From a virus: 64,000 bases of DNA. Each line of letters opens with the position of its first letter. The stretch's first letter is position 1. Shown here piece by piece: positions 3,391-62,700 of this stretch. A program made the position numbers and the translations under genes. A model generated the notes under the pieces. The model searched no databases. It worked only from the letters and a program-made list of their open reading frames with translations, and was not told the DNA's origin. The DNA is taken from IMG/VR virus record IMGVR_UViG_3300026534_000035, positions 16,458 to 80,457 of that record. One strand, written 5' to 3'.

Positions 3391-3420
3391 TTGTAATAGA
3401 ATTAAAGGAAAGGTTATAGA

Positions 3421-3981: not shown

Positions 3982-3989
3982 GGGGAGAC

Positions 3990-34983: not shown

Positions 34984-35005
34984 ATAAGTATATAGGAGAA
35001 GAAAA

Positions 35006-35964: not shown

Positions 35965-35967
35965 TAG

Positions 35968-37743: not shown

Positions 37744-37756
37744 TGGAGGATACTAA

Positions 37757-38707: not shown

Positions 38708-38724
38708 TACTTCCAGGAGTTGAG

Positions 38725-39929: not shown

Positions 39930-40873
39930 TGAGTTATGAAATGAAGAGTATAAGGAAAGAGGATCTTAGTGTATACCATTATCTAAAAGAAGTAGTTTTG
40001 TCTGATTTTGTAGAAATAGATGAAAATATCCCTTTGGTATATAGCGAAAAATTATCTAGTGTTAATAATGATGCGGATCCTTCTACGAATATCTTAGTTT
40101 ATACAGCTGAAACTGTTACCCAGCCTAATCCAATTTCCAGAGGACGTGGTTGGTTATATTTTGATACAGTGTCAGGAACTCAATCACAGTTGTGTGAGCC
40201 CTATATAGTTGTGTCAGGAACTCGTGCGGATGGTGTACCGGTATTTGGGACCCCCGAACAATCCACTTCCGTGATTGTTTATGATTCTAATTTTAATATA
40301 ATTGACAGCTCATTGTATATGATAGACTATGTTGATGGACGAATAGTCACTGATGATGTTTCATTGGATTTAGCTTACGTTACATACAAATGGTATTATG
40401 TAAGTGTTGTGGAGGGCTGGGAACTACTTGATGTGGCTGATCCTCCAATAGTTGTTATAGATATTCAATCCACCGTTAAAATGGGCTATCAATTAGGTGC
40501 TGGAAAAAAGATTATAAGACGTGGTGATATTCATATTTTTGCCTCCAGTTCAGCAGAACTTAAAGATTTGTCAGAGACTATTTATGATGGGTTATATTTG
40601 AGAAGCTGTCCTTTGTATAATTTTTCTTTGGGCGATGTTTTAGATTATGATGGAACTTTTTATGGGAGAAAAGAAGACCCTAATAAACTAACCTCCCTAT
40701 TTGATAGAACCCATAGTAAAAAAATTATAGGTAATTTAGAGTTTAATAAAGTTGTGGCACGTAATGTTGGTTTACCACCAATATTAACACGAAATAGAGA
40801 AGAAATAATGAATGATTTAAATGCTTACAGAGCAAAAGTAAGTTTTGAATTGATATCTTATACACCTGCATAG
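39929..40873 (+). CDS. Putative tail terminator
   Basis: P.VVID....G.QLG...IHIFA pattern; directly upstream of the tail tube gene. Confidence 0.55.
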   Translation: MSYEMKSIRKEDLSVYHYLKEVVLSDFVEIDENIPLVYSEKLSSVNNDADPSTNILVYTAETVTQPNPISRGRGWLYFDTVSGTQSQLCEPYIVVSGTRADGVPVFGTPEQSTSVIVYDSNFNIIDSSLYMIDYVDGRIVTDDVSLDLAYVTYKWYYVSVVEGWELLDVADPPIVVIDIQSTVKMGYQLGAGKKIIRRGDIHIFASSSAELKDLSETIYDGLYLRSCPLYNFSLGDVLDYDGTFYGRKEDPNKLTSLFDRTHSKKIIGNLEFNKVVARNVGLPPILTRNREEIMNDLNAYRAKVSFELISYTPA

Positions 40874-40996
40874 GAAAAGGCCTTATCGTTTTTAGCTTGC
40901 CTCGGCTAATCTACGATAAACTAATGTATTGGTAAGATATCGAAAACCAACCTGATTACTTTTTCTGATAAGGATAAAATAGGAGGAGTAAGTAAT

Positions 40997-42601
40997 ATGG
41001 CTAGAAATAGAATAATTTATGCGTCTCAGAGCGTGTGGTGTAATGGTGAGGTCCTTTATAGAGTTCAATCTTTGGGATCAACCACTACGTTTACGTCAGA
41101 AGACATTTTTGAATTAGGTCATTTAGACATCGTAGATGTTGTAGATGATGTTCCTGCAGTGGCAGTTACATTAAATACAAATGACTTTGGTGATCTTCGG
41201 ACGGCAGCTACTTTGGCACAATTACCCGCTGTAAAACGTGCTATGAACGCCACTACTAATAGTACTAATGCTAATTTAAGAGTGGTGGACAGCGCCGGTA
41301 TGGCTACAGGTACTTATTTACATGGTGTCTGTTTGGCTGACTTTGCAGTGGTATGTGGTAATTTGCCTGGTGTTACGTTGTGGGCGCCAGTTCAGGATGA
41401 GTGTTCTTTGGGCACTTTGGATCCTAACATTGACCAAACTCTGTTCTTAGACGAAGTTTATGTTAACAGTATAGAGCTAGGTTATACAACTGGAGCTAAT
41501 GCAACTGAAAACTTTGGAGCTGAAACAGATAATAAAAAATGGTTTTTAAATGATGGTAGATTTATAACAATGGATGCCTTCGATGGAGCAACACTTGCTT
41601 CAGGAATTAGTGCAGGGTATATTACACTAAGTCTTCCAATCTCAGCTACCATTCCTACCTTGTCTGATGGCACTATTGGTTTTCTGCGTAAATCAGAAGA
41701 TGGTGCTCCCGCAGTTACTTGGTATGATGTTTCTGCTAATGCAGTAAAGAATGTGGAAATAGTAGTTGGTGTGGCTGCTGCTACTGATACTTACGTATAT
41801 CACAAAACAGCTACAGAGCACAGAGTGTATTTACCAACTGGCGCAGATGCTCCAGCAGCGGCAGACAGAATAGAGGTAATTTATTCCGCTGATGCTTATG
41901 GTACTTCTGCTACTGGTAAGTATTTTGAAATTTTGGATACTACTAGTCGTCCTGACATGATTGGCGCAATTAGACAGGGCCAGGTGGAAGTTTACATTGT
42001 TTCTGATTCTGATACATCTTATAGAGGTGCTTGGAGATTGACTGGTTGTACAACTACGGCTGACCTAACTCGTACACCTTTGGCAGAATTAGGACATTTG
42101 GCACCATATGATAGACCACTAACAGTTCCTGTTCCGATTACAGTAACTGTAGACTCTACCATGGGTGACTTGGAGAATTGGGCTATGTTTGCAGATCAGC
42201 TGCCTGCTTATGATGCTAATACTCTGGATGATATTAGTCTTACAGATTTAATGTCTTCAGATGATCTTAAGTTGGTCGTTATGGTTTATGCTCAAACCGA
42301 CGAAGAAGCTGGTGGAACTGGTTCTAATAGAAAAATTGCTGCGAATAGTCCTTTGATTGGCCAGAATTATTGGGTAGATGGTGTTATGGGAACATACGCC
42401 GCCGCCGGCGAATCAGAACACCCATTGAAAACTATTATTGTTGAGCATCTAAAAATTACGGATGAGGGTAACACTTTAGATATGGGTGCTAATATGACAC
42501 AGACTTTTGGTTTCAGGTCAACAAATGACTTGTATATGATTAAGGGTGGTGTGTCTATTACGAATATTACTAGTGGAAATAAAGTAAGACGTAACGGATA
42601 A
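40997..42601 (+). CDS. Major tail tube protein
   Basis: MARNRIIYA, RVQS, IFELG, internal repeat with ELG; strong SD; followed by chaperones and tape measure. Confidence 0.75.
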   Translation: MARNRIIYASQSVWCNGEVLYRVQSLGSTTTFTSEDIFELGHLDIVDVVDDVPAVAVTLNTNDFGDLRTAATLAQLPAVKRAMNATTNSTNANLRVVDSAGMATGTYLHGVCLADFAVVCGNLPGVTLWAPVQDECSLGTLDPNIDQTLFLDEVYVNSIELGYTTGANATENFGAETDNKKWFLNDGRFITMDAFDGATLASGISAGYITLSLPISATIPTLSDGTIGFLRKSEDGAPAVTWYDVSANAVKNVEIVVGVAAATDTYVYHKTATEHRVYLPTGADAPAAADRIEVIYSADAYGTSATGKYFEILDTTSRPDMIGAIRQGQVEVYIVSDSDTSYRGAWRLTGCTTTADLTRTPLAELGHLAPYDRPLTVPVPITVTVDSTMGDLENWAMFADQLPAYDANTLDDISLTDLMSSDDLKLVVMVYAQTDEEAGGTGSNRKIAANSPLIGQNYWVDGVMGTYAAAGESEHPLKTIIVEHLKITDEGNTLDMGANMTQTFGFRSTNDLYMIKGGVSITNITSGNKVRRNG

Positions 42602-42617
42602 TGTATCTATAGGAAAA

Positions 42618-42642
42618 AGAGTGGGCACTTTGTGTCCACTCT
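42618..42642 (+). terminator. Stem-loop after the tail tube gene
   Basis: AGAGTGGGCAC-TTT-GTGTCCACTCT; A-tract upstream, no U-tract. Confidence 0.5.
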
Positions 42643-42667
42643 GATCAAAAAAGGAGGAGTATAGGAT

Positions 42668-42925
42668 ATGTCTGGGAAAGATAAAAGTATGGACAAAATG
42701 AATAGGTTTGTTAAATCAGAAGTAACGGCTATGTTTGAACGTATTCTTGATTATGCACAAATAGCAGTTCCAACTGAAGCTGTGTATAAAGCCCTAAGAT
42801 CAAAAATTTTACGGGCGGGGAATGATTGTATAAGAAGAATACAAGCACATAATACAAAATTCTATGATGTAGAATACAAACCTGTTTCTGAGGATGTAAT
42901 AAAAGTAGATAAAGTAACTAACTAG
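42668..42925 (+). CDS. Hypothetical protein
   Basis: ORF with SD; LRSKILRAGNDCIR. Confidence 0.7.
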   Translation: MSGKDKSMDKMNRFVKSEVTAMFERILDYAQIAVPTEAVYKALRSKILRAGNDCIRRIQAHNTKFYDVEYKPVSEDVIKVDKVTN

Positions 42926-42956
42926 AAGAGGAAATGGTATAGGAGGTGTATATAAA

Positions 42957-43706
42957 ATGGTAGAAGAAAAAACTGATGATAGACGTGTTTTTATAGGACC
43001 AGATGAAGTAACTGAGTATTTTATTGCTACTCCAAGCGCAGAAGATATTAGGGGAGCAGATTGGCAGTATAGTAAAGTTTATACTTCAAGCTTGGTAGCG
43101 GGAATAACTACAAGTGCCGAGATGATGGATATTTTGATGAGACGGGGTATTATAGGCCCTGAGTTTGAGCAACGTTCACAAGAACTTACTGAAAATTTAA
43201 ATAAAGCTATTTTGGAATTGGATGCTGCAAAGACTCCTGAAGAAAAACAAGCCTTGGCCATAGTAGTAGCCAATGCTAGAGAAGAATTATTCCAATGGAG
43301 TCAAAGACTTAATGGTCCTATGGCTAATACATGTGAACAATTGGCTGATGATGCACGTTTAGAGTATTTAACATCGTGTATGGTTCAAGATAAAGACGGA
43401 AAAAGAGTTTGGGATTCGTACGAAAGTTATTTAACTGAAAGAAATCAGGGTTTGGCTAATAGAGCTAGATTTGAAGTAATGTTGTTCTTACAAGGATTAG
43501 ATTCTGATTTTTTGGAGAACACACCAGAAGCAGTGGCGGTTAAAGAAGCAGAAAGACAATTACTAGCTGAATCTGAAAAAGCTATTAATTTAGCCAATGC
43601 CATGATGGAAGAAGAAGCTCAGAAAAAGTCTAAGCCCAGTTCTAATAAAAAGAAAACTACCAAGAAAAGTTCTTCTAAGAAAAAAACTACTAAAGCAAAG
43701 AAATAA
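42957..43706 (+). CDS. Putative tail assembly chaperone
   Basis: Acidic helical protein between tube and tape measure genes. Confidence 0.55.
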   Translation: MVEEKTDDRRVFIGPDEVTEYFIATPSAEDIRGADWQYSKVYTSSLVAGITTSAEMMDILMRRGIIGPEFEQRSQELTENLNKAILELDAAKTPEEKQALAIVVANAREELFQWSQRLNGPMANTCEQLADDARLEYLTSCMVQDKDGKRVWDSYESYLTERNQGLANRARFEVMLFLQGLDSDFLENTPEAVAVKEAERQLLAESEKAINLANAMMEEEAQKKSKPSSNKKKTTKKSSSKKKTTKAKK

Positions 43707-44710
43707 TGGATTTATCTTTAGAGGAATTGGAAGGCTACCTGAATGTTATTTTAATAGCTCAAAAAATAATAGAAATCAGGGGGCTGGAACTGGTATTTAA
43801 GCAACCAGATGTCGCTTTGAAAATGAAAGCGGCTATGGTTTATAATAAAGCGTATAAGGAGGCCATTAATAGTGGTCTCCTTTCTCGCAAAGACTTGTCT
43901 GAATTAATTAAAAAAAGACATATAATTTCTGAAGAAGAACTTAATAGGCTTAGTAGGTTAGAGAGTAAATTAGAAGCTCAAAAAATTTTGTTGAGCAAAA
44001 CTACAAAAGTTAGAGCTAATCAGGATAGACTTAAAAAAATAATTTCGGATTTGGAATCTGAAATATTTAGTATTAAAGAAAAAGAAATGTCCAAACTTAT
44101 GCTTTCTGCGGAAACTAAAGCAGAAGAAGACAGGTATAATTTTTTATGTGCCAAAAGTGTATATCATAATGATTCTCTTTTTTGGCCATCTTATGAGATA
44201 TATAAAAAAGAAACGAATTTGTTATTAAAGAATGAAATTTTATCTGAGTTTATGGCTTTTTATAATGGTATTTCTACAGATGTTATTAGATATATTGCTA
44301 GACATAATTTATGGAGAGTGAGATATGTAACAAGTAGAAAAACTTCTGAGGCATTATTTGGTAGACCTACTTCAGAGTATACAATAGATATGCTTAATTT
44401 AGCTTTTTGGTCTAATTATTATCAACAGATTTATGATATGTTGCCAGAAGACAGGCCCCCTGAAAGTATTATAGAAGATGATGAAGCACTAGATGCTTAC
44501 ATGAAATCTTTCTATGATGAACAAGAAAAAGAAGCAATGGCAAGGAAGGCGGAACGGAAAATAGGTGGCAAACTGTCAGCGTTTGATCAAGAAGAAGTAA
44601 TAGTAACTCGATCTAATGAGTTATATGAAGATATTAAATATGATAAACCAAGAGAAGCGCAACGAATAAGGGATAAAACGGATATTAGGAAAAAGGCACG
44701 GCGTAGATAG
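43706..44710 (+). CDS. Putative tail assembly chaperone 2
   Basis: TAATG coupling; RPP..IIEDD.ALD motif; directly precedes the tape measure gene. Confidence 0.55.
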   Translation: MDLSLEELEGYLNVILIAQKIIEIRGLELVFKQPDVALKMKAAMVYNKAYKEAINSGLLSRKDLSELIKKRHIISEEELNRLSRLESKLEAQKILLSKTTKVRANQDRLKKIISDLESEIFSIKEKEMSKLMLSAETKAEEDRYNFLCAKSVYHNDSLFWPSYEIYKKETNLLLKNEILSEFMAFYNGISTDVIRYIARHNLWRVRYVTSRKTSEALFGRPTSEYTIDMLNLAFWSNYYQQIYDMLPEDRPPESIIEDDEALDAYMKSFYDEQEKEAMARKAERKIGGKLSAFDQEEVIVTRSNELYEDIKYDKPREAQRIRDKTDIRKKARRR

Positions 44711-44757
44711 GTATATATAATTATATAATATTTTATTATTAATTGGAGGAGCTTATC

Positions 44758-47700
44758 TTGGCTAATGACATTAATGTAAATTTTAATTTAAAAAACAACC
44801 CTTCTAACTTACCGGCGGCTCCTACTTTATCAGGAAACAAGCAGCTGGCTGCAACATTAGAGAAAATATTAGTTCCAGTTCTAAAAAACATTGAGCGAGG
44901 CTCATCTGATGCACTTAAACGTGCAATGATAGAGTATAGTAAATCTACGTCTCAAGGTGGGGGTTCTGCTAATTCCAAAGAATTTGAAAAAATTTTTAAT
45001 AGTAGTTTTAATAATTTTGGTAAAAGACTCGCTCGTATATTAGAACAGCTTATTTTACATCTCAATAAAGGTACTAGTCCACAACAATTTCAAACAGAAC
45101 TTAAAAAAGCTATACGTACTGAGGTAGATATAGCTTTAAATAAGTTTCAAAAGAAGGCCTCCTCTCATAATATAGGTATATCTACATCCCAGCAAACACA
45201 AGCAGCCGAAAAAATCACTGATGCATTGGTTAAAAAATACGATGCGTCATTAAGTGGGCATGTTGCGAAATTATCTGTTGCTATTAATGAACTTAAACAG
45301 CTGACAGAAAAAAGTATGCTTGCTATTAAAGAAGGAAAACAAGCGTATGAGAATAAAGATTTAAAGCATGCTGTTTCTGCTATTCAAAAAGGGATAGAGG
45401 TTTTACATCAAAAAGAACAAACACAAGCAGCTTTTAAAGAACTTAAAGAGGTTAGTAAGCAATTAGGCGAGCAGCAAAAAGATGTTGCTAAGCAGATAGC
45501 AGAAGGTATTAAAACTTTAAAGAGCACTGTAGATAGTAGAGCATATAGAGCTAAAAAAGAGATATCTAAATCTCCTGTTGAGGTTTCTACTGGAATTACT
45601 AAAGAAGTTATAACTGCCTTAAAAAAGATTCCTGGGATTTCTGAAAACAAAGAGCTCATTAAAAAAATAGAGCTTATTAACAACAATATAACAAGTATAG
45701 AAACAGCTGTTAAATCTTTTAAAGAGCTTAAAAAAGTAGTTGATCAAGCTAAAAAAACAAAATCAATAGATGTAGAAGAGTATAAAAAAATAGTACAGCT
45801 TTTTAAAGATTTAAGTACTGCTGGTGGAAAATTTAAAACACTTCCTAGACGAGATAGGGAAGAGCTTAAATCTCCAGTAGTAGAAAAAATGGTAGCTGTT
45901 GTAGCTAAGTATGATAAAAGAGCTCAAGCTCTTTTAGAATATATACATAGTATTCAAAAACCGACCGCCGAACCTTCTACAGTGTCTATAGCACCTAAAG
46001 GTATTAAGTCGATTGAGACCGCTGTCGAAAAGGGGATTGAAGAGGGGTCTAAGAAAAAAACTGCTGTTGATAAGGCAATGGCTGCTTATACAGCAAAAGA
46101 AATTAAAAATGTAGTAAAGGAATTTATTTCTGAATACAAAAAAACAATACAAGAAGCATCTTCTAAAAAAATAGATACTAAGTTTCTAGAAGCCGCATAT
46201 AAGTCAGGTAGTTTAAAAGGAGTAATTAAAAAGGCGACTGAAATTAAAGGAACAGAAAAATTAAGAGAGTCTGCTAATGTTTTATTAGGAATGGGTGACC
46301 AAAAAGACATATCTAAGGCTATTTCTGATATGTCTGATAAATTTGGAAGTATAAGTGACGGCTTAGACTCGCTTCAAGATACTTTAAAAAGAGCCACTAA
46401 ACAAGTGGAGGAGTCTGTTCCAGAGGGTTTGAAAAAGAAGGGCGAAGATGTAGCAGCCGGTTTAGAAGATTTAAAGAAAAGTATTGAAGAGAGTGTAAAA
46501 GCTAGTGATGGAGTCACAGAAGAATTAAAGAACATTAAACCGCCTACTAAGTCTACTCCGAAATATAGTTCTTCAAGAGATACTTTAAATAGAATAAGTT
46601 TACAAAAAAAACTACAACAACGACAAGTTACTGAATACCCTGAAACTTTAATTTCTCCTGATTTGGATATTAAAAAACTGTTGGGGTCTTCTTTAAAATC
46701 TAAAAATAAGTCTATATCCGAAGCCTCTAAAGAAATAGGTAAAAATGTAGAAGACTTGGCTAGTTCTTTGAGTAAATTACAAAAAGATATTGTAGACACT
46801 CTAGAAAACGGCTTACCTCGTAAAAAGAACTGGCATTGGGAAATAGTTAAAAGAGCTGGTGATGATATCTCTAAGTATTTTAAAGCCGCCGGCGGAGCAG
46901 GTGAAGCTAATGCTAAAAATGCTCGTTATTGGAAATTACAAATTGCGGATGTGTCGAAACTTAAAGAATTTTTAGAAAAAGGCTCAGACGATTTAACTGG
47001 TGTGGTTACACTAGTAAATGAAGCTAAAAGAAAATTAATTAATGATATTACTAAGTATAAATCTAATACGAATGATTTGGCTGAAGGAATAGCTGAATGG
47101 ATAAAAACTACTTCTGATAGAGAAATAAAAGAATGGGGTGATATAAAAAATTCATATGTGGCACACAGAAATAAACAGCTTAGTGTAATAAAGAAAAAAT
47201 ATAAGGGTGGCACGGTATCTAGAGCTATGATTGACGATATTAAGAAGACTTTTTCTGAGGATCTTTCTAATATCTTTCAGGATACCTATGCTACAGTGGT
47301 TGCTAATAAAGAACTCTCTTCTAAAAATTTAGTTAGGAATATTCACATCCCTGCATTACGCTTATCTAAGACTGGAACACCTGTTTTGGAAACGGCATCA
47401 GGAAGCCAACGTGCAGTAGCTGGTTTTGCCAAATTTACTACCGGTTTAGAAAAATTGTTTTCTAAAGTAGAAAAAACTTCTATACCATTAGAAGATATAG
47501 GAAAGTATAAAGAAGAAATTCAGTCTATTGGGATTAGACCTACTAGTGTTAGTGAGTTAGGAAAGGCTAATGCTGTTGCTGAAAGCATGTTTTCTGATTT
47601 AGCTAAAACTGCAAATCTTAGTGTAAGTGATATGAAGCAGCAATATAAAGAAGCTGCTATTATGAAGGGAGCGGAATTAAAGCGGCGCGGAGTTATTAAA

Positions 47701-50700
47701 GACGTACCTACCTATGTTAATAAAATTAGCGAAGCATTTGACAAATTTAAGTCTGGTCCAATTGATATTTTAATGTCTGAGATGAATAAATTAGGCGTTA
47801 GTGCTTATGATTTGGTCAAGTCTATGGATTCTATAAAATTTGAAAATGTGTATGATGTATACAAAAAGGTTTTGTCAGAACCCCTTCAAAAATTAGCAAG
47901 TCGTCCAAATAATAGTAATATCCGTAATTTTGAACAAGCTACAAGGCAGGTAGAGCAGTTGATGCCTTTAGCTCCTCAAAGTAGAGTCCGACGAGCTTAC
48001 CACCAGCAAAATGTTTTAAATTTAAGGACTTATACTTCTGATGTTTATAAGGGCTTAGGTTATTCTGAAAGGCAGCAACTTACTTCCCCTGATGCCCAAA
48101 AAAGACTGATAAAAGATTTAAACTTAAGATTTGATGAAATGTCAAAGGAAGCCAAAGTATTGAAACAGTCTGGCTTGTCTAGAACAAATGCTTTGCCGTA
48201 TAGAGTTAAGCAAATTTCTAGTTTGGGGTTGCCTGAGTCTCAGGCTGGAAGTATAGCTGACTTTACTCGCGGAAAAGTATTGTCTGAACGTGATGAGTAT
48301 GAAAAAGGAGTTAAGCATTTAAAAGTATTAGGTGGTATGGGTGTTAAGATGTACACAGAAAATCTAGCCAAGATGGCTCCTTTTGGTCAATTTCAACAAA
48401 TAGGTAGAAACATTGCTAGTACAACTAATGCTTTAACTTCTAATTTAGATAAAATAAAGAAATTACCTGGAGTAAAATTAGAAGGGGTTAGTACCGAATT
48501 TCCTACACTTAGGACTCAAAAAGAACAAGCACTTATTAGATCTGGAAGATACGGGACTCAAGGCTATGGATTTAATGTATTAACTGAACTAAGGCATAGT
48601 GCTTCCACCTTTGAAGATCAAATAGTTGTATCTGGTAAGTTGGCTAAGGCTCTTACTGCTATTGTTCGAAATATAGTTATGCCGAGTGCTAAGGGAAGAG
48701 CGTATAATAAGAGCGAGCTAGAAGAAATTAGTAAACCTATAGCCTCTGCTGTTGAGGACCTTCAGAAAAAATTAGTGGCTGATACTCCTATGAATAAAAG
48801 AATTGGTGAAGTAAGTCGTGTTTTTCAGAAAGTTCTAGGAGTAGAGCAAAAGTATAAGGGTCGCGCGGATAAAGCCCTTGTCAATGAAATAAAAGATACT
48901 CTATCAGTTGTCCGAGGAGAAGACGTAAATGTTCAAACGGCTAAATTAACTGAAGTGTTTCTTAATCACTTTGGTAGAAAGCTTACTACTAGATATGGCT
49001 CCAAAGGTGTTAGTATAGCGACTGAGGTTGGTCCTGATAAGTCGGACTACATGAAAAGTTTAAAACAAGTTTTGAAACAATATGCTAGAGAAGGCACTAA
49101 AATAAAAGTTCTGCCCGTTGATCAAGTTAAAAAAGGAGCAGGTTTAGGTGTAGCCGTTCTGCCGAAGTCTATGGGGGAACTATTAGCAGAGCTTATAGAT
49201 AAAAATAAAGATAAACTAATAGCTTCTGGTAAAAGTTCACAAGCAATTTCAGGATTAAAAACACAGTTATTAGAATCTGGTAATAAATTCATACTTGATT
49301 TATTTAAAGATGCGTCAAAAGGATTAGTTACTGAAAATGAAGCTTTAAAACAAGCTTCTTTATACAAAAAAATAAATGATATACTAAGATCAGTATATGC
49401 TGATTTTAAAGGGTTGCCGAGCGGAATTGAGGGTATAAAAAAAGTAAAAGAATTATACACTTCTAAAACAAAAGGTAAAGGAGAGTTGTATAAGGAAGTC
49501 CCAATCGATGTTAGGATTAGCTCTAAAGGTATAGGTAAGCGTGGCTTACAGCCCGAAGTCTTAGAGGCAGTAATGAATAATATTGTAGGTAGTGCTAAAG
49601 GGCCTACAACAATAAAATCTGATTTTGAGAAAAATAAACTATATCAAAAACTATTGGGTGGTCCTAAGACTCCTGGTCGTTTAAGTGTAATTAGTGAAGC
49701 ATTAGGATATAAGTCAACTGTTCCTGGAACATTAGAACAAAAACTTAAGGATCCTACAAGAATAAAAAAATTAGAAAAACAACTTTTACAAAAATTTGGT
49801 AAAGACAAACCTGATTTATCAAAATATGCCGCAGAATTAGAGGCACTTTCTAATTATTATGTGGATGTAATTGATGAATTGGGAAAACGTAGGAAAAGTT
49901 TAGTTGGTAAAAAGTTTTTGGAAATTGTTGAAGAGCCGGGAGAAACTCAGAAATGGACTAAGCAACAAGTAGTCAAAGCACAAAAAGGACTAAAATTAAA
50001 TATTCAAGCTTATACTGCCTATGCTGATATCTTTGGTAAGAATTCGGCCATAATGAAGGAGATTTCTGGTAAACAAAGTTTGCAAGCAAAAGAAGCTATG
50101 GAATATTTGAAAGCTTTAGAGGCCAGTCCTTATAGTTCCGCAAATAATTCTGATTTAGTGAAAAAATTAAAAGAGGGTTCTAAAAAGGTTAAATTAGGTA
50201 ATATATCAACTTTTGATTTGTCTACTGGTATGTTTAAACCAGGGTCTAATAGAGACTTAACTGGTTCAGTGTTTGATGTTAAAAAATTTCCTACTGCTTT
50301 TACTACTCAAATTCCTAAGACTACTGGTAAACCAGGAGAAACCGAACCTTTTTATGTTCCCGGCCCCCTGGCGCGAGGAAATTATCCCGAACCATTAATT
50401 GCGGGAGAACACGGGGTTACTACAATTGGCAGAAGATTACAGCATGTGATAAACATGGCAAAAGCTGCTGAAGATTTAATTAAATTGCCAAAAGAATTAG
50501 ACAAACAAATTTCAGTGCTAGAAGATGAGTTAGCTAAGCTACTTAAATCTGGTGCTAGTACAAAAGAAATAGACATTGTCACTAAGCATTTAGAGTCAGC
50601 TAAAGCTGAAAAAGCTAATTTACTTTCTGGAGCAAATGCTTTGGATGCTAAAAAAATTAATCAAATTGCTCCTTTAATTATTAAAAAAGTAACCAAAGCT

Positions 50701-53700
50701 TCACCAGAAGAAAAGGAACATTTTAGAAAAGTAATATCTGAATTTGTTGGTCAAGAAGTAGGTACTACTGGTTCACTTGGCGGTTTAGGTCCTGCTTTAG
50801 ATACTCTAGTTGGTCCAATGGCTGATTTAAATAAAGGGGTGTCATTGAAACAGGCCGTTAATATGGCTAATGAAGTAGTTAAAATTTTAAGTAAAAATGT
50901 TGGTCAACGAAGTAAAGAAGAAAAAGATTTATTGGATAGATTTAGAAATCTAAAAGATGTTGCTACTAATACCGCATTTAAGGGGCAAGATTTAACGTCT
51001 GATGATGTTTTAAAAAACGTAGCTACTCAGTATGCTAAGTGGAGCAAAAAAAGAGCTTCTGCTCCGACTTATTTGAGTCAGATTCGCAGTAATAAAACGG
51101 CTGTGTTGGACTTAGTTAAAAAGTTTGGAATTAAAAAAGATTTAGGGATTGATTTAGAGTCAGAGTATAAGAAGCGACTTCAATTACTTGAGAAAGCTAA
51201 AATTGATTATTATAAAGAATTAGCTGAAAAAGCTGTTGGTAAAAAAGGCGCTGTAGCAGAAGTTTTATTTACAAGGCATGTTCCTGCACAATTAGGAAAG
51301 GCCGTTACTGCAGTAGTTGATAAAACCAAGGAACTTAATAGTTTTAAAAGTTTTTTGTCTAAGTTTTATGAAAAAAGTGAAAAACAGTTGGGGCCTGATT
51401 TAGCTAAAGAGTTGGGAACAGAAGAAGAATATTCTAAGTTATCAAAAGAAATAGGCGACATATCAACTAAACATAGTGAAATTATTCATAAATATGTAAA
51501 GCAGAATATTCCCGTATTGAAGCAGACTGAAATAGGTATTCCTGCTTCGGCAGCAAAGAATATTCCTGTGGAATTTACTAAGAAATATAGAATAGAAAAA
51601 GAAGGCTTATTGAGCGAAGTACCTAAAGAAGCTCAAAAACCAACAAAGGGTAGTTTATTTGATTTACTGTCCTATAAAAGAAAGCTGGAAACCTCTAAAC
51701 GATTAACTAAAGACGTTGTTACTGGTGGTCCTGGTAAAGATGTTTCTCAGGATATAAAGAAATACATAGATAATGAGCTTTTACCTTATATTGAAAGTGT
51801 AAGATTTCCTTTTACTGGAACTTCGAGTGTACAGCCATATAAAGCTAAGCTACTTCCTTCTATAAAAGGCGAGGCTGGAGTAGATTTAACTAAGCATATT
51901 TTAGCTGTTCCAGGGATTCCTGATTTCGGCAAAGGTGGTATAGAAGAGTTTGATAAAATAATTCAACATCTTAAGGATAAGATAGAAAAAGCAAGTGCTC
52001 TTAGAGAACAAGCGTATAATGCTGGGGATGTTGGAAAAGCCCAAAAACTTACTGCCGTAATAGAGGAACTAACTAAAGCTATTTCTGCAGTTATTCCTAA
52101 ATATACAGCCGTGCAACAAAAGCTGGATTTTGATGGCGACCAAATAGAAATCCATAGTGCTGTAACTGAAGCTGCTAGAAAAGATATTAAAAAGCATTTT
52201 GAAAGTTTGAGCAAAGATGTAGATAGTACAGCAGCCAAGTTTAGAGATGCCTTTACCTATGACCCCACAAAAAGTGATGCTCCCGGAGGTAAATACACTT
52301 TAGCTGAAATGGCGGCCGCTTTTGAAAAGAAATTTCCTGCTAAAAAAGGTTTTGAGTTTTTAAAGAAGCCCTTTTTGACGTCAGATTTAAAATATATTTC
52401 CCCTCAAAAACAACTATCTATTTTGTCAGAGCAGTTACAAGGAAATGTAAAAACTGTTTTGGAAAATGTTATAGAGAAAAGCGTGATAGGTGTTAATGAG
52501 AAAGGTATTTCAAATAAAGAACTTATTAAAGAGGCTATCAAGGCTGTACCAGAATCTAAGGATACACTATCTTATTCAAAAGCTTTATTGAATGCTATCA
52601 AGAAGTTAGACTCAGACATTAATAAAAGTTCTGGTAAACCTAGTAATTTAACTAAGATGGTCACTGGTGGTGTTGCAAATAGCCTATATGAAACTAAATT
52701 TAAGAACGCTATTGAAGCGCAATTATTTAAAATTCATACGGGGCCTGAAACTGAAGCTATTACTAGAGTTCAGAAATTTGCCAGCGCCAGAACTTCCTTC
52801 CCTAAAGGTCCTTTAACAAAAGTTGGGGTAGATTTTAAGAAAGAGTACATTACTCAAATGAATGAAATGTTAAGGTTCGCTTTACAGAAAGGAATGGATG
52901 TAAAGCATGCTGGAGCAGGTACTGTTTCTGGAGATATAGTTAAAGGGCTTACTAGTGGTAAAGAGGGTTTAAAAACTCTTTTGGAGAAAATAGGACTAGT
53001 TGGTAATAAGCCTTCTGAAGATTTTAAAGGGCTAAAAGAGTTTGCGGATATAAATGCAAAAGCTATAAGAAATCAAGTAGGTAAATTGACCAATGAAGAA
53101 GTTTTAAAGCAGGCTCAAGAATTGGTGCCGGAAAAAGACTTGTCGAATAAAAGCAGGGAAACATTAACTCAAATTATTGTAAACAAATTGGGGTTTAAAG
53201 GGTTTTTGGAAGACCTTCAAAAGGGAATTCATCAAGAGGTTTATAAAGCCCTGCTTGAAGAAGCTAAAAAAATGCCAGCCTACCAAAGAAAGGGCAAGCC
53301 TGTAGAGCAATATGCTACGGAAAAACTTAATCAATTAACTACAGATAAACGTGCAGATTTACTTAATAAATATTTTATACAAACTAAATTGCCGTTGTAC
53401 GGAACTCGCACATCCACTGCTACAGGTGTTGGTCAGTTACGAGAGATAACCCGTAAATATGGCAAAGAGGCTATAAGTGTTCCTAATTTAGAACTACCTA
53501 AAAATGTAAAAAATGATTACGTGGAGAAATTTAAGATAGCTGCAGCCACTGCTCAAAATGTGCGTGAAAAAATAGGACAGTTTGGTTCCGAAGGCATTTC
53601 CGGTCCTTTTTCTGATATGGTAAGCACCAGTATAGATGCTATCTATAATGAACAACGCAAAGTAAATAAAATTGCACAGAGTATACAAGGAACACCATAT

Positions 53701-56700
53701 GAAAAAGTAAGTAAAAAAGTAGAGGATTTAGCGGACAGGATTGTTAATGAAAAAGGCATTCCAGAGTTTGCTAAAAAGCTGTTTTATGGTAAAGGAAACC
53801 TATCTCCCAAGTTTTTGAAAAACATGGAATCTCAAGTAGAGGATTATACTCGTTTAGCTGGTTTGCCAAATTTGGAGGTTGGAGAAAAACAACGTGTTAG
53901 AGATGTGTCTATTTCAAAGTTCTCTAAGATTTTAAGAAAACAAGTCCCTGAACTTGATGAAAATCAAATAAAAGACTATTCCGAACGATTATCTCGAAAA
54001 GCCATTGCTCTTTACAAATTAGACAGAGCTATGACTGCTTTTGTAGAAAAGGCCAAATCTGGGGCTTATATCACCGATTTATTTCCTTCAAGTGAAGATA
54101 GAAAGCTTGCTGCCAAAACAGGGATATCCTCTAAGAATTTAATACGTGATAATATTAGTAAGCAAAAAGAAGCTTTAAAAAATGTTCAGGCTTCGTATTC
54201 AAGTGCTGAAGAGAGTGCTGAAAAGATTAGAGAAGGTAAGCGTAGAGCAGGTGTTTTCGGAGGCGGCGGAAATTTTGGCGAAGGAGTTCCTGGAGGAACT
54301 ACTGGTATGCCTTCTGGCGGCGGTGTTGTTCCGGTTTATATCGTGGGTGTTGCTGAGAATGTCGGTAACATAATTTTTACTCGCGGCGGCGGACAGCAGG
54401 TAACCCCACCATCTGGGCTGGCTGGACAATATGCAGAACCTAAATTATATAATGTTCAGAGATTAAGAGATTTAGCTAATAAAGCCTCTGGCAATATAAA
54501 TATTATGAAGGGTTCTGATTTTGGTAGTATTTATAGAGCAAGTGCTTTTCATGGCGGAGGACCTTATTTAGGTGAGGGTAAAGGAAATGTAAGTGACTTT
54601 GAAAAATCAGCTAGGGTGAATAGATTACAAGTTAAAGCTATGGTGAAAACGATGCTTGGTGCACAAGCACCAGCTACTTCACCTAAGGGACAATTATTAG
54701 AGTCTTCTGCTATTTTAGGCACCGGTCTTCATTCTAAAATTGAAAAATATATGAAGGATTTGTATGGGGACAAAGCAGAGTTTGAAAAAATGATTGTTCT
54801 CCAGAACAAAGAAATCGGCACTATAACTGGACACATAGACGCTGTAATAAAAGAAGGTGATAAATATAAAAAAGTTATAGACGTAAAGACTGTATCTGCT
54901 AGTAGAGTCAAGGATATTGGGGCTGCCATAAAACGAGCAAAAAGTTCTAAATACTCAGATATAAAGAATTTAATTAAGGACTATGAGTCTCGTAGAAAAT
55001 TAGAAGAAGTTGCTTCTCAGTTAAATATTTATTTGAAAGCATTGGGTACCGATTTGGAAGCAGAGGCCCAATTCTATAACAGATTTAAGCCCGAAGCAGG
55101 TCCTACTATAGTCAAGTTTAAATTTGATCCAGCACGTTATAAAAGAGATATAGCTAATGTTAAAAGGGCACGTGAGGCCATTGTTGCTTCTGGTGCTAAG
55201 TTTGCTAAGACTGCATCTTTAGAAGAAGTTAAATCTGCTAAACCGCAAGAATTGACTAAAAAAGAAGAGGAGTATTTAATAAATGCAGGTAAATCTTATT
55301 TTATAGATTCTGTAAGGAAGCTAGCAGAGAAAAAGCACGGTAAAGCAGGCAGTGCTAAGTTTAGTTCTGTTGAAGATATTAAAAAAAGAATAAGTATTGA
55401 AAAAACAAGACTTGGGTATCACTCTATGGCTACAGGCCCAAGTATTGAAGAAATTTTAAATCCACCTCCTGTTATTCCAGGCACTGGCGCTAAAGTAGAG
55501 TTTCAAAATCTTAGGAATTTACATGCTATAACAAAGGCCTTCCAACAACAACAGGGTTTTGAGGTGTCTAAGTCTGGTATGAGAGGCCTTCCTACTGAAA
55601 TTCAAGACATGTTAAGAAGTGTGCAGGCTTCTGGCCCCAAAGGCCCAGAATTTACAGATCTTATTAATAAACTTAAAGATGCGGGCGTGATGAAACATAA
55701 AGATGTTTTTAAGTCCTGGCGTTTATATAAGATTGCTGTAGGGGATTTCTTTGTTAAAGAGATGGAAAGGGCGCAGAAAGATATTAAATATTTTAAGGAA
55801 GCCAATGATTATACTTCTGCTTTAAATGCTGCAGGTAAATTTAAACGAAATTTAAGTCAGATGCAGGGATATATTAGACAAAATATAGGGAAGCCTACTG
55901 ATATATATACTCATAATAAGCGATATTTATATCCCGGTTTGGCCAAAGCGGCCGGAGTTTATGTTAATCCTTCTGATGTAGCTAAGAACGTTACCGCTCC
56001 AATTGGTGATGACGCCAAACTTATGAAGATTTTTAATACAGTCACCAAAGATTTATCAAATCAGAAAGAAATGTCTACTCCAATAGAAAAGGCCAGAGAT
56101 GTTTTAAGATCACTAGGTAATTTAGACGAGAATGTGGTAAAAGTCCTCACTGATGCTGAAAAACTGAAACGAATGGGCACAGAAGTTATACAAGCATGGG
56201 ATGTTAATAAAATCTCTGAGAATTTAACTAAATTAAGAACTGCCTTAGAAGGTTTTGCTAAACAGAATCTTACGGAAGACTTTGAGGCTCCTCAAAGAAA
56301 AAATCTTGAGTTAACGATTAAGCTACTCAAGCAAGTTGAAGATAAATTTGCTTTAATAGGTCATCAGCGGAAACGTGATTTTTCTGGTAATTGGGGAGAC
56401 ATGGGTTTAATTCCAGTTCCTAAATTCGAAACCCCAGATGTTCAAAGAGCCATGCACGAAACTAATTTAAGGAGGGTTAGACAATATTTTAATGTTCCTG
56501 AAGCAAAAGGCGGTCCTAAAATAGGACAGTATTTTACTTACCATGAAAAAATCAGTGATGCTACGGGGAATGTTATAACCAATAAAGCTTTCAATTTCAA
56601 AAAGCAAGGAGAGGCTTTGGATAGGCTAGGTAGGAAATATAGTGTAGTGTCTGAAAGCATGGTTGACCTTATTAAGCGAGGGCAAGATTATAATAGAACC

Positions 56701-59700
56701 ATGTCTGCAGCTATAGGCAGAGCTGCTAGGTGGGGAGCAGCATCTACTATTGTTTATGGTGGCGCTAGGAAGTTATTAGATACCATTAAATTAGTGGCTG
56801 ATGTTGAGACTGAGATGTCTAAGTTGAGAATGGTAATGAACTCTGTTACTACTGATTTTGGTAGAATGGAGAAATCAGCTATAGAGATGGCAAAAGCATA
56901 TGGTGTGCCTATAAAAAATGTATTAGAAGGTATGCGTATTTTTGCTCAACAGGGTTTGAAACAGTCTGAGGTTATAGATAAAACACGTACAGCAACTCTG
57001 GCAGTAAATGTTACTACATTAAATGCTAAAGATGCTACAGAAGCTCTTACTGCGGCTACTAAAGCTTATGGGAAGGAAGGGCAAAGTGCTCTTAGGTTTT
57101 TGGATTCATGGTCAGAAGTAGAGGCTCGTCACGCTATTACAGCAGCTGATATGGCAGACGCCATTAAAAAATCGGCTTCAGCCGCAAAAAATGCCGGCTT
57201 TACTTTTGATCAACTAAATGGAATTGTAGCAGCTATTGGATCTACTACACGACAAACAGGTAAAGAGATTGGAACTTCTACTAGATTTATTTTTAGACGG
57301 CTGACTTCTGATAGAGGCCCAAAAGCGTTGGCCAAAATAGGAATTCCAACTGTTACTGGTACAGGGGAACTTAGAAAAGGATTTGATGTCTTAGATGATT
57401 TAGCTAAAAAATGGGACACTTTAACCCATGCCCAGAAAATGAATATTGCTCAGGCTGTTGGTGGCACCCGACAATATAACTCGGTTTTGGTTTTAATGGA
57501 TCATTGGGATGAGGCATTACAAGCTATAAAGCATAGTACAGATTCAAAGGGTTCAGCAGAAAGACGAAATGCTGAAATAATGAAAACCTATACTAAGCAG
57601 CTTGAACAAATGAAACAAACTGCTTCTGAGACAGCCATTCAATTTGGAAAGTTATTTTTACCCTTAGCTAAAACAAGTGTTAAGGGAATAAAAATGTTTT
57701 TGGAAGTTATTAATTCTATTCCAACAAGTATTAAATTTGCTATGGGTGCCGCGGTTGCTTTTATGGCTTATTTAGCAAAAGGGCACACACTTATTCAGAA
57801 TTTAGTAGACTCTTTTAGATCAGGCGAAGTAGCTCTGTCTGGGTTTTTTAAAGCTATGAAAACTGGTTTTAAAGTAGGGATGTTTGAAGTATTTGGTTTC
57901 GGTAAGAAAAATGATCCATTATTGAAAGGATTACACACTATAGGTGATACTATTCAAGGTGCTTTTGGTAAAAAACAAGGGATGACTTTGAATAATTTTC
58001 AATCATCTCTTGGTAAACTTGGATATGTTGCTACAGAAGTATCAAAAGCATTCAATAAAATGGTTATAGGTAACACTTTAAGCGGAGCTGCTACAGCTAC
58101 TGGTTTGGCTGGTAAAGGGTTTGAGAAAACAGGTAAATTTGTAAGAAATACTTTTGGTGTAGAGGGTTTTACTAATACAATCAATGCTGCCCGCGCGGGG
58201 AAAGATATTCTAACATCTAAAGGGGCTTTTAAGGCAATTAGCGAAGGCGGACTTTCAGGATTAAAAGATATTTTTGGTGGAGCTATGGGTATTGGTGCGG
58301 AATTTGTTGGAATGTCATCTACTCTAGTTGGTAAGTTTTTGGATTATTTGAGTAAGAAATTAGGTGTTGCTGCTGGTGCATTCATAAAGAAATTTGCTGC
58401 TGAGAATACAACCTTTATGAAGGCCGTAACTCCTATGGTTGCTACAGTAATGGCTATGTATCCTGCTTTGAAAGGAATTGCTCATTACTGGAGAAAAATG
58501 ACAATGTCTGCTCAGGATTACGAGAAGGCATTGTATGCATCTATAAGAACTAATTCTGAGCAATTAGATGCTCTAAAGAAAATTAGTTACGAATATAAAT
58601 CAATTGATAAATTGGTACATAAAGCTAATTTAGCACGTAAGCCACAAGTTAAAGCTGAACAAATGCGACTTGGTACTTATGTTGATCCATTAGTAACTAT
58701 GGGAAAGGTTCAGGTTAGGTTGGTAGATGTTAATAATAGACTAGCAAAAGCTAATAGTAGTTTAATAGTGGGATATGACCAATTAGGAAATGCAGTTTTT
58801 AAAGCTAGAGGAAATGTTGAAGACTATATAAAAACACTTCAAAAAGTGAGGACTAAGAAAGGTTTAGAAACCTCTATGGAAGTGTTAAGTAAGTATGTCC
58901 ATGATTTGTCCCAAACAGGAGGGTTTGAAACAGCTAAAAAAGTTATTAAGGATTTACTTGAGGAAGTTCCTGTTGTTGGAGAGAAACTGGCTAAACCAAT
59001 AAAACTGTCTCCCATTAAAGTGGTTGAATTGGCAGTTAAAAAGCTTAATAGACTAGTAGCAATTAAAAATAAATATCCATTATCTAATGCAGTTGACTCT
59101 GATATAAAACGTTTACAAGAAAAATTGATAGCTGCTAAAAAAGCTTTAAAAACCACTTATGAAGGGATGCAGAATGTATTTAAAAATAGATTGGATTTTA
59201 CTGGATTAAGTAGAAAAGAAATAGAAAGTATACTTAGTTCTAAAGTATTTAAAGATGCTTACAAAGTAATGATTAAATTAGATCCTCAATATCAGATAAA
59301 AGGTATTAAGGGTCAAATAACGGCTGGGGATCTTCAAGGGTCAGAAATTCTAAAACAAATTTTTCCTAAAATTTCTGGAATGATAGGGCCACGTAAAAAT
59401 CTTACGGAGGCTTATTTAGCTCAAGCAGGAATTAGTGCTAGACGGCCTAATAAACAAGGAAAGATTATGGCTCAGTCTGGAGATATTGTTACTTTAACTG
59501 GTCCTGGGGAACGTATGTTAAGTGCTGCGGGTGGTCAAGCAGTGCTAGAATTTAAGAAAACTGCTGAAGGTATTGGCAGGTGGTTGTTGACCTATGTAGA
59601 TAAGAAAACAGGAGAAATTAAAAGTAAGCCTTTTAATGCTATGACACAAATAGCTAATGTTGAGAAAATTTTTCCTACATTTAAAGCACAACGAGACTTG

Positions 59701-62700
59701 AGAGAAAGAATAGATGCTCTTTCCGAAATAGTGAGTGGTGCGGCCGCGGGCCTTAAAGGTGTAGGAGCTAAACCTTTTAAAAAGAACCTTTCTTTGGGAG
59801 AAAGATTCTTTAGTGGTATACCAACATCTACTTTGATACAAGCTAACAAAGGTTTTGAGCTTAAAACCACTCCAAAGGGTATGCAACCATTTTATGGTAA
59901 TATTGAATTTCAGAAAAAATGGCCAGAAGAGTTTAGAAAATATTACCAAAAACCACTGGAAGAGTATAATAAACAACTTGAGACTTTAAAAGGTCGTAAA
60001 CTTACTGGGTTAGGTCCTAAAGCTACGGCTGTTAGCAAGGAGACCGCTGCTGAATTAGCTAAGAAGCGAGCACTCATTGAAAACAATCAAGTGGTTTTTC
60101 AATATAGGGCTGCTTTAATGGATCTAAATAAGACTTTAGAAGAAAACATTAGAACTGTTGAAGCCAATGTAGCTATTGAGAAGGATAGACAAAGATTAGA
60201 AAAAGAAACAAGTGGTTACATGAAAGGTGTTGCAAAAGGATTTGATGCTATTAACTTAGGTATTCAAGATTTTAATAAACTTACTGCATTACAAAGAACT
60301 TTGCGTACTAGTTCTACCGCACGAGAAGCGGCAGGAAATATTCTTACTGCTCAAACACGTCGTTCGGGTGCTATGGAAAACATTAGCTCAATAGAGAAAT
60401 CTATACAAGCTATAAAAGGGATTACTGCACCAGCAAAAGGGTTTGGTACCATTATGTCTGCTAAACAAAGAGCGCAGTATGTAGAGCTGGTTTCTGCAGG
60501 TGCCAACAAAGATACTGCGATGCTAGCTGTTAGCAGTAAAAACATAGAAGTTAATACGAAAGATACAGTAACAGAGCTTAAAAAGGCAGGAGAGTTTTTA
60601 AGAGGGATTTATGAAAGAACAGTTGAACCAAGGTATGGAGTTGATGCTGCTCTTGGTGAGCTTAAAGACCTTCTTTCAAAACCTTTAAAAATGACCTTTT
60701 TAAAAAGAGACTTTCTAACTCCTCATTTTTATGATAAGCCAGGCCTAATTGTTAGAGCCATGAATAAAATCTTTGGGTATGAGGATAGGATGAGAAGTAA
60801 AGGTAATTTGAAAGGAGTGGCCTATGCAGAAAAACAATTAGACCGTCTGGCCAAAGAATTAGTCTATTATACTGGTAGTATAGAAAAGGCCAGACAGACG
60901 GTAGAAAAGTATAGTGGCTATAGTGGCGGCAAAGTAAAAGCTAATGAAATTGAACAACGACTTTATAAAGGTTTAAATTCAGAACAGTTTGTACAGGATT
61001 TAAGTAGCGCTGTTAAAGAAAGTAATAAGAAGGCTTGGTTTTCTTTTACTAAGAAAACTCCTGTTAAAAAAAGTGATGCTTATGAAACGTATAAAAAGTT
61101 AGAAGAAGAAGGTAAAAAACCTTGGCATGATACAGCTAAGAATACATTGAAGACTTATGCTGTTTTAGGAGCCTATAGTGCATTTAGAAAAGGGGCTTAT
61201 AATAAAACTTATAAAGTTTTAAAAGAGCAAGCAGATTATATCCACCAACAACTTAAAATTGGAAAACTTACCAATGCCAAAAAGATAGCTCTAAGTAAAA
61301 AACTTATCTTTTTGAATGAGGGAATGAAAAAAGAAACCTCCAAAATTCAGCTAGCTAAGTTGATCCAAACAGGGGCTATGGTTAGTGGCGGTGGCATGGC
61401 AGTTGCTAGGGTATTGGGACTCAGTAGTACTGCTCAAAAAGTAGTGGGCGGCGGCGCCGGCGGAGTTTATGCAGCTATAAAAGCATACAAATTACTGGGT
61501 AAAAAAATTCCTGTGTCTTTGGAGAAGGCGTTTAATGCAGTTGAGGAAAAATTACAAGAGAGACAAAAAACTGCTGGTAAAACAGGTGGTTGGGTGATTA
61601 AAAAAGTATTGGATTTTAAGATAGCTTCTAAACTTAATGAGTTAAATAAAGAGGCTCAAAAATTTGCTGAAACTCAAACAGGTGTAAAAACAGAACAGTT
61701 AGCTAGTTATACCAAAGAAGCCCGTGCTAGAATAGATAAGATGAGCAAGCCAGAAAGGGCAAGAGAAGTAGAGAAATTAAGACGAGAAGCATCTGCTGCA
61801 TCAGGAAGAAGATCTGTTATTAGTGATGCTATTTTGGCTAGTATAGTAGGGACTGCTGTAGGCTATTTAGCTAAACAAGGTTCTTTAAGAACACAAGTGG
61901 CTGATAGAACAAAATTAGCAGAGAAGCAATCACGCGCAATTGATGAGTTTAGGAAGAAGTATCCTAAAGAGTTTGAGAAAGTTCTTGAAAGAAGTATAAA
62001 AAAGAGTTTACCGCCTGAAGTAGTTCAGACTCGTAAAAAAACGGAAGAAGCTAAGGCTAAATTTAGTCTAGTTAATCCTGCTTTGTCTCCAGAAGATGAA
62101 AGAAAACGAATTTTAAAGAAGGCTCAAGAAGATAAAAAAATTAATGAACTTGAGGTTAAAAGATTAAATAAAATAACTTCAACTAATAAAAAGATACTTA
62201 ATGATGAAGTTGGTACTTCTAAAATTCGTATAGCTAAAGAACAAACATATGATAATATTAGAAGAAGAAATTTAGAACGTACCGTAAAAGCATTTAGCAG
62301 ACCTGAGGCTGGGCCTGGTTTGCGTGGTTTTATTGGACCTGCTCCAGTAATTAGATCAGACAAAGAGTTAAGCACCCAACAAAGACTTTATAAAGAGGCG
62401 CCTTCTAATATTAAGGATGCTATAAATAAAACTACATTATTAAATTCAACTTTGGGCGACCTTAGCGATGCTTATGCTAAGCAAATGGGGGATATTCAAG
62501 GTAATATTAAAACTATTCATACTTTAATTGAGGAAAGAAAACGGTATCAAGATGAACTTAAGAAAACCCCCTCTACAGACACAGAGAAAAGAACACAACT
62601 TTCTGATAGTATTACTAGAGATAATGAAGCAATTAAAACTTTAACAAAAAGAATTCAAGAACAAAGAGATGTAGCCATAAAATACAGAGAAGAATTACTA

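Follow-up and report, generated by a model that had tools for sequence, protein, structure and literature searches.

We analyzed a stretch of 64,000 nucleotides, referred to here as the window, which covers positions 16,458 to 80,457 of IMG/VR virus record IMGVR_UViG_3300026534_000035. One open reading frame (ORF) in the window, at 44743-63999 on the + strand (the strand of all features described below), encodes a giant tape-measure polyprotein, and this single frame harbors an RNA polymerase (RNAP), a nuclease and the tape-measure core together. Sequence motifs and a predicted fold assign the nuclease (54469-55236; residues 3243-3498), with high confidence, to the PD-(D/E)XK enzymes of the Cas4/lambda exonuclease/RecB clade, and it lacks an iron-sulfur (Fe-S) cluster. 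It forms a discrete accessory cassette between the fused RNAP and the tape-measure core. On balance, we favor the composite interpretation that this cassette supplies a competent, Fe-S-free nuclease that is ejected from the tail and acts on DNA ends. Phages of this lineage therefore probably deliver two enzymes, a polymerase and a nuclease, together with their DNA.

Sequence and predicted fold of the nuclease domain

An earlier interpretation made from the DNA letters and their translations (the sequence-only reading) had proposed a RecB/Cas4-like nuclease at 54532-55180. The motifs that it quoted are present in frame in the translation of that span, namely, GTGLHSKIE (residues 3326-3334), GHIDA (3363-3367), IDVKT (3379-3383) and SQLNIY (3425-3430), together with E3348. 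The span contains the motifs of the domain, and only its limits needed revision, the folded domain being a little wider (approximately 54469-55236).

Conservation was assessed across 55 distinct domain sequences, which comprise hits among sequence representatives and 31 IMG/VR loci and have a median identity of 33% to the window. Ten residues (Q3296, G3326, H3330, E3348, G3363, D3366, D3380, K3382, Q3426 and Y3430) are invariant wherever the column is covered, a pattern that points to maintenance of the domain by selection. The motif I histidine, H3330 (54730-54732; 53 of 53 sequences), lies on helix alpha1 and aligns with the histidine of the Cas4 protein SSO0001. The motif II (GxxD) aspartate, D3366 (54838-54840; 53 of 53), on strand beta2, aligns with the motif II aspartate of the same protein, and motif III, (D/E)xK, is represented on strand beta3 by D3380-V-K3382 (54880-54888; 54 of 54 at each of the two positions), which aligns with E-I-K of Cas4. 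E3348, on strand beta1 (54784-54786), is likewise invariant (54 of 54), as are Q and Y (55 of 55) of Q3426-L-N-I-Y3430 (55018-55032), the QxxxY motif of RecB-family nucleases. We take the combination of His, Asp, Asp-x-Lys and QxxxY to be the RecB-family nuclease pattern, with His, Asp and Asp as metal ligands and Lys as the catalytic residue. Motifs and model together suggest that the domain is probably catalytically competent and metal dependent.

HMMER scanning of 1.84 billion representatives recovered 28 relatives and no free-standing close homologue of the nuclease. Sixteen of the 28 are giants of 5,817 to 7,930 residues in which the nuclease occupies the same relative position and one DxDGD motif is located approximately 700 to 1,000 residues upstream of it. 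When PDB sequences were searched with a profile of 10 nuclease sequences, the Cas4 proteins SSO0001 (4ic1; E, 6e-6) and Pcal_0546 (4r5q; E, 3e-3) were matched, and the alignment pairs His, GxxD and (D/E)xK-T. Significance was reached with the profile only, as a single-sequence phmmer search gave an insignificant match to SSO0001 (E, 0.3). The phage Cas4-like family phrog_1706 of PHROGs was matched at an E value of 3e-8, and Cas4-like, "exonuclease" and RecE-like PHROGs families matched five of six members tested (E, 3e-8 to 1e-3).

An AlphaFold2 model built from a 21-row alignment (predicted local distance difference test [pLDDT], 88.9; predicted template modeling score [pTM], 0.88) has the alpha-beta-beta-beta-alpha-beta topology of the restriction-endonuclease-like core, with D3366 and D3380-x-K3382 on the strands given above and QxxxY in the next long helix (model residues 172-192). 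All 27 Foldseek matches at an E value of ≤1e-3 (best, 1e-5) are Cas4, lambda exonuclease, RecE, Exo5, AdnAB, MGME1, LHK-Exo and similar proteins. The best VIA-align match is Cas4 4ic1 (Z, 12.2 over 164 residues; root mean square deviation, 3.0; 20% identity), with LHK-Exo (3syy) at a Z of 12.1, Cas4 in 7mi5 at 11.8 and lambda exonuclease at 10.4. There are 42 chains at a Z of ≥8, and among the matches listed, ranks 1 to 41 (to a Z of 7.1) all belong to this nuclease clade. Look-alikes in the ESM Atlas, which serve as a lead only, are viral PD-(D/E)XK, Cas4 and YqaJ clusters at 0.94 to 0.96. Profile, family and structural matches thus bear out the RecB/Cas4-like assignment of the sequence-only reading, and both features on which that assignment depends, a restriction-endonuclease-like fold and conserved catalytic residues, were found.

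The domain combines characters of several known nucleases. As in Cas4 (SSO0001, 4ic1; Pcal_0546, 4r5q; Cas4-Cas1-Cas2, 7mi5 and 8d3l), which provides the best profile and fold matches, the motif order is His on alpha1, GxxD and (D/E)xK-T. Four cysteines bind a 4Fe-4S cluster in Cas4, AddB, Dna2 and Exo5, whereas the nuclease described here, unlike Cas4 proper (PF01930), has no cysteines and falls below Pfam thresholds. Also unlike Cas4, it is not free-standing and has no cas1 or cas2 neighbor but forms an internal part of a tape-measure ORF, both in the window and at 31 related loci. Lambda exonuclease, RecE and LHK-Exo (YqaJ type) are similarly cysteine-free phage PD-(D/E)XK proteins, and the model aligns with this group at a Z of 10 to 12 over 180 to 197 residues, a resemblance rather than membership, with an identity of only 8 to 16%. 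Each of those enzymes is the product of an early gene of its own, accompanied by a gene for a single-strand annealing protein, and forms a toroidal oligomer that threads DNA and has a 5'-phosphate pocket, whereas the domain described here is one segment of a structural protein of the virion. Finally, the nuclease domains of RecB, AddA, AddB and AdnAB share the H...D...DxK...QxxxY set and the fold (Z, 6 to 8.6) and likewise belong to large polypeptides with motor or enzyme functions, but the nuclease described here lacks a helicase partner, and their structural scores are lower than those of Cas4 and lambda exonuclease.

The sequence-only reading had seen no Fe-S cysteines in the domain, and the case proved stronger than claimed: the entire ORF has zero cysteines over at least 6,419 residues, so that an Fe-S cluster is impossible. 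The 16 giant relatives contain 0 to 4 cysteines each. Avoidance of cysteine may generally characterize proteins that are stored in the tail lumen and ejected. The lack of cysteines and of the cluster fits an enzyme that is stored extended in the lumen and refolds after ejection, a passage that would preclude an Fe-S cluster or the risk of disulfides.

The nuclease cassette among related tape measures

The sequence-only reading had suggested that homologous tape measures be surveyed for co-occurrence of polymerase and nuclease. The survey started from the tape-measure core, so that possession of the nuclease did not influence which loci were selected; it yielded 41 IMG/VR loci, whose upstream regions were read in the same frame. 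A DxDGD motif is present upstream, in frame, in 39 of the 41 loci, and the remaining two (L040 and L041) are ordinary tape measures of approximately 2,100 residues. The nuclease accompanies the polymerase in 31 of the 39 RNAP-bearing loci (E, 1e-36 to 1e-90), always at the same position and with the same flanks. Co-occurrence is thus frequent but not universal: the nuclease is absent from eight loci (L004, L011, L020, L021, L024, L025, L026 and L036), in agreement with a six-frame search.

Comparison by blastp with L004, L020 and L025 delimits the variable segment at 54094-55443 (residues 3118-3567), which consists of a Gly-rich linker, the nuclease and a short tail. In nuclease-less loci, homology stops at window residue 3117 and restarts at residue 3568, and approximately 137 residues stand in place of the cassette of approximately 450 residues. 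The absence of the nuclease from 8 of 39 loci, with collinear flanks, identifies it as an accessory module and indicates that the polymerase can work alone. No separate nuclease gene was found in five cassette-less records, all fragments, the sole match being to flanking profile columns. Within the cassette, the nuclease is preceded at 54250-54468 (residues ~3170-3242) by a Gly-rich stretch, GGGGNFGEGVPGGTTGMPSGGG..., which includes a short and conserved hydrophobic strand and looks like a flexible tether.

When the tree of the core region was rooted with the ordinary tape measures as the outgroup, the first branch was L036, which has the polymerase without the nuclease. The other nuclease-less loci are nested within groups of nuclease bearers at two to three or more separate positions, and the distribution implies four changes, at least two of which are forced by well-supported branches. 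One gain followed by repeated loss is the simplest history. Nuclease divergence is correlated with polymerase divergence (Spearman coefficient, 0.58, not corrected for relatedness), and no distant pair of loci has near-identical or unusually similar nucleases. L036 (IMGVR_UViG_3300021513_000001) is the deepest polymerase-bearing relative, with a DLDGD motif, a core that is 46% identical and a long branch, and could represent the fusion as it was prior to acquisition of the nuclease.

The fused polymerase, the tape measure and the phage lineage

Motifs and modeling point to a fused beta/beta'-type two-barrel RNAP upstream of the nuclease, the beta-like barrel being recognized by motifs only. 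This beta-like region (48544-49602; residues ~1268-1620) is conserved across 17 giants and includes FEDQIVVSG (residue 1290), GRKLTTRYGSKGV (residues ~1411-1423) and PID.RIS..G..KRGLQ.E.LE (residue 1591), which we take to resemble NFEDSILVS, GRHGNKGV and SRMNxGQ of RpoB. The beta'-like part (51190-53592; residues 2150-2950) carries VRFPFTGTSSVQPY (residue 2353) and the putatively catalytic DFDGDQ (residue 2462), similar to RAPTLH..S.Q and NADFDGDQ of RpoC; the core of DFDGDQ is identical to the NADFDGDQ metal site of cellular RNAP beta'. The metal-binding DFDGD itself (52126-52140; residues 2462-2466) corresponds to the DxDGD found once in each of the 16 giants and in 39 of 41 loci.

An AlphaFold2 model of residues 2150-2950 made with 30 homologues (pLDDT, 78.5) retrieved, as all of its 50 top Foldseek matches, largest subunits (beta'/Rpb1) of multisubunit RNAPs, at weak E values of 7e-3 to 4e-2. 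VIA-align gave a Z of 13 to 14 to beta', Rpb1 and the RNAP of African swine fever virus, with 565 chains at a Z of ≥8. With this beta'-like fold upstream and Pfam PhageMin_Tail downstream, the nuclease lies where the sequence-only reading had placed it, between the polymerase and the tape-measure core. The block immediately upstream of the beta-like barrel (47260-48537; residues 840-1265) is also conserved. A profile of this block found nothing significant in PDB, with a weak match of profile positions 119-197 to the sigma-28 factor FliA (1rp3; E, 0.016) that could be due to chance or to a built-in promoter-recognition element, and the ESM Atlas returned weak tape-measure-like leads, below 0.9. 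Neither search gave any sign of a second nuclease in this block, for which no fold was predicted. The closest relative, L002 (IMGVR_UViG_3300009702_000031; 66 to 79% identical), has an in-frame TAG in its polymerase part at nucleotide ~4421 (KRR*ELLEKAK, compared with KKRLQLLEKAK in the window). Homology goes on in the same frame, and the TAG may reflect a sequencing error or a nonsense mutation or may be read through.

A conservation map of 17 giants distinguishes conserved segments at residues 650-1900 and 2150-2900, a variable insert between them (1900-2150), the moderately conserved nuclease (3250-3500) and the tape-measure core (3650-4350), which has the highest conservation in the protein. 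The core includes Pfam PhageMin_Tail at 56872-57465 (E, 1e-25), the only feature above threshold in a Pfam scan of the whole giant ORF, and ten PHROGs tape-measure families match the ORF (best E, 1.5e-67). The ORF is open at its 3' end, where the end of the window coincides with the end of the 80,457-bp contig and truncates it. No terminal repeat was found when sought on the contig, and circular closure was rejected: the joined frame would stop after 100 more codons, and the family has 7,000 to 7,900 residues, which indicates that the contig is a fragment. Judged from these relatives, about 600 to 1,500 residues of the protein are missing.

The only published counterpart of a nucleic-acid enzyme within a tape measure, as far as the literature was searched, is the polymerase of Thermus phage P23-45, whose gp96 is a tape-measure-fused virion RNAP that transcribes pre-early genes (Chaban et al. 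2024, PMC10770324). Only P74-26, G20c and TSP4 are named there as other carriers of this type of fusion, and the word nuclease does not occur in that paper (PMC10770324). Like the protein described here, gp96 (5,002 residues, no cysteines, DFDGD at residue 779) combines a two-barrel RNAP with DxDGD and a tape measure in one giant cysteine-free chain, with the polymerase N terminal of the ruler. The RNAP of the present family is, however, far larger (residues ~650-2900), follows an N-terminal region of 650 residues, precedes a nuclease and has motifs close to those of cellular RNAP. Scanning of gp96 with the nuclease-family hidden Markov model (HMM) detected no PD-(D/E)XK domain, and comparison with the HMM of the whole giant family gave negative scores only, i.e., no detectable sequence similarity. 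Mycobacteriophage TM4 provides another example of an enzyme module inside a ruler protein that is delivered at infection, as its tape measure protein carries peptidoglycan hydrolase motifs (cited in PMC12619734), but known enzymes of tape measures act on the cell wall. Full-text searching for nuclease or Cas4 together with tape measure yielded no account of a tape measure that contains a nuclease. The sequence-only reading had known of no RNAP-nuclease-tape-measure polyprotein; this holds for the literature searched, with the qualification that the combination of RNAP and tape measure was already published (PMC10770324). Within that literature, the novelty lies in the added nuclease and in a much larger lineage without sequence similarity to gp96.

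Unlike P23-45, an 84-kb thermophilic siphovirus, the phages of this lineage are uncultured and their larger records reach 160 to 230 kb. CheckV completeness estimates for relatives (86% at 228 kb and 61% at 161 kb) give genomes of approximately 260 kb, which suggests that the 80-kb record is roughly one-third of a jumbo phage. DNA of the window is present in a hydrothermal-vent metagenome run, and no RNA run containing the stretch was listed. Neither tblastn of the nuclease and polymerase parts nor megablast of 20 kb found a match among 50,697 phage records. The terminase shares 28% identity with the terminases of Bacillus Basilisk-like siphophages. A fragment with 65% identity (RLI59799.1, "phage tail tape measure protein, partial") lies on a 3,175-bp contig in a metagenome-assembled genome of Candidatus Asgardarchaeum californiense; it provides weak evidence for a host, and misbinning is likely. 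Ten ORFs upstream of the giant gene (33563-44710) include no Pfam sheath, tube or other tail part, their sole Pfam match being a subthreshold PKD domain in one of them, and 6 of 10 larger ORFs elsewhere in the window lack a PHROGs match.

Possible action of the nuclease at DNA entry

In siphophage 80alpha, the tape measure is a trimer whose N termini contact the tail completion protein by the DNA end in the neck (PMC11661146). If this arrangement is valid here, the N-terminal half of the giant protein, which contains the polymerase and the nuclease, would be the last part to leave the tail and would immediately precede the genome, so that both enzymes would come to lie on the cytoplasmic face of the DNA entry channel. 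The nuclease would then most likely act on DNA ends at the entry site. Its nearest structural relatives are end-dependent 5'-to-3' exonucleases, which favors end resection. In the preferred scenario, the genome end that enters first undergoes limited 5'-to-3' resection of the kind performed by lambda exonuclease, RecE and Cas4. The resulting 3' single strand may serve the adjacent polymerase or end joining/annealing and circularization. Action on the phage's own entering DNA is a tentative proposal. An elaboration that we consider improbable would have the three nuclease domains of a trimeric tape measure assemble, where the channel opens into the cytoplasm, into a ring like that of lambda exonuclease; the genome end would thread through this ring, the 5' strand would undergo limited resection and the 3' strand would pass to the upstream-fused polymerase, such that DNA entry, resection and pre-early transcription from a single-stranded template would be coupled without host factors.

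Several points weigh against this interpretation. The presence of the nuclease in the virion and its ejection are predicted from the identity of the protein as a tape measure, and the topology assumed for it is that of 80alpha. The sequence is compatible with phage DNA, host DNA or RNA as the substrate, and fold alone is no proof of nuclease activity. Resection of a phage's own genome is risky unless limited, and retention of the polymerase without the nuclease in 8 of 39 relatives, at two to three or more places in the tree, weakens the version in which the nuclease prepares a template. The sequence-only reading had proposed a profile search against PDDEXK_1 and Cas4, and while the Cas4 structures 4ic1 and 4r5q were matched significantly, Pfam PDDEXK_1 (PF12705) remained below its gathering score (best, 20.2 bits; cutoff, 22), with any match at all in only 3 of approximately 20 members tested; this shortfall is a matter of database threshold and not a biological feature.

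Almost as likely as end resection, though itself doubtful, is an attack on host or competing DNA. The nuclease would then be a weapon at entry, perhaps released proteolytically, against the host chromosome, plasmids, competing phages or the nucleic-acid parts of defenses. The domain evidence fits this equally, the patchy presence (31 of 39) and repeated loss are expected of an accessory, host-dependent function in an arms race, and the structural matches include nuclease domains of the RecB, AddAB and AdnAB type, whose targets for degradation are foreign or broken DNA. A nuclease tethered to a membrane-associated tape measure would, however, have limited access to the nucleoid, and neither a cleavage site nor a mechanism of release is known; moreover, the best structural matches are end-dependent exonucleases rather than sequence-specific endonucleases, and nothing indicates how the phage's own DNA would escape.

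Three further alternatives, namely, RNA processing, mere binding and selfish mobility, are less probable than DNA-end action or host attack. The fusion of the nuclease to an RNA polymerase in one chain, and fold matches (Z, 6 to 8) to SOX (3pov; RNA complex, 5hsw), Rai1 and the eIF3d cap-binding domain, are compatible with 5'-end processing of pre-early transcripts or with host mRNA shutoff like that by SOX and Rai1/DXO. This is nevertheless very unlikely, as SOX and Rai1 rank well under the DNA exonucleases (Z, 7 to 8 versus 10 to 12), every sequence-level match is to Cas4-like or exonuclease families, and the HxnDxn(D)xK and QxxxY set is that of RecB-family DNases. More unlikely still is a possibly inactive DNA-end-binding domain or structural spacer that holds or caps the genome end or adds length. 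A length-ruler protein tolerates large insertions, some 137 unrelated residues can replace the cassette, and the fold has noncatalytic binders, of which the eIF3d domain is an example; the invariance of all catalytic and metal-ligand residues at ~33% identity, with surroundings free to vary, instead argues for an active enzyme. A selfish, mobile, homing-endonuclease-like element inserted in frame, with no role in infection, could account for the patchy distribution on the tape-measure tree but is the least credible alternative. The tracking of polymerase divergence and the lack of similar cassettes in distant loci argue against mobility, as do the constant position and flanks and the absence of free-standing close homologues among the representatives, and no intein or intron signature was seen.

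Before this analysis, an enzyme of nucleic-acid metabolism fused to a tail ruler was known in one phage group only, Thermus phage P23-45 and its relatives. The same principle now extends to a second, much larger lineage, present in many metagenomes and without detectable sequence similarity to the first, such that the system described here is a largely undescribed and widespread variant of one published once. Pfam annotation misses the nuclease domain, which is therefore invisible in current phage catalogues. As a cysteine-free, Fe-S-free domain, it would represent a natural Cas4-like fold built for storage in the tail lumen and for refolding, a second enzyme predicted to be delivered at DNA entry. 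If the nuclease acts on the entering genome, it is relevant to the question of how a virion polymerase obtains a template that it can use; with host DNA or defenses as its target, it would constitute a new class of preloaded countermeasure.

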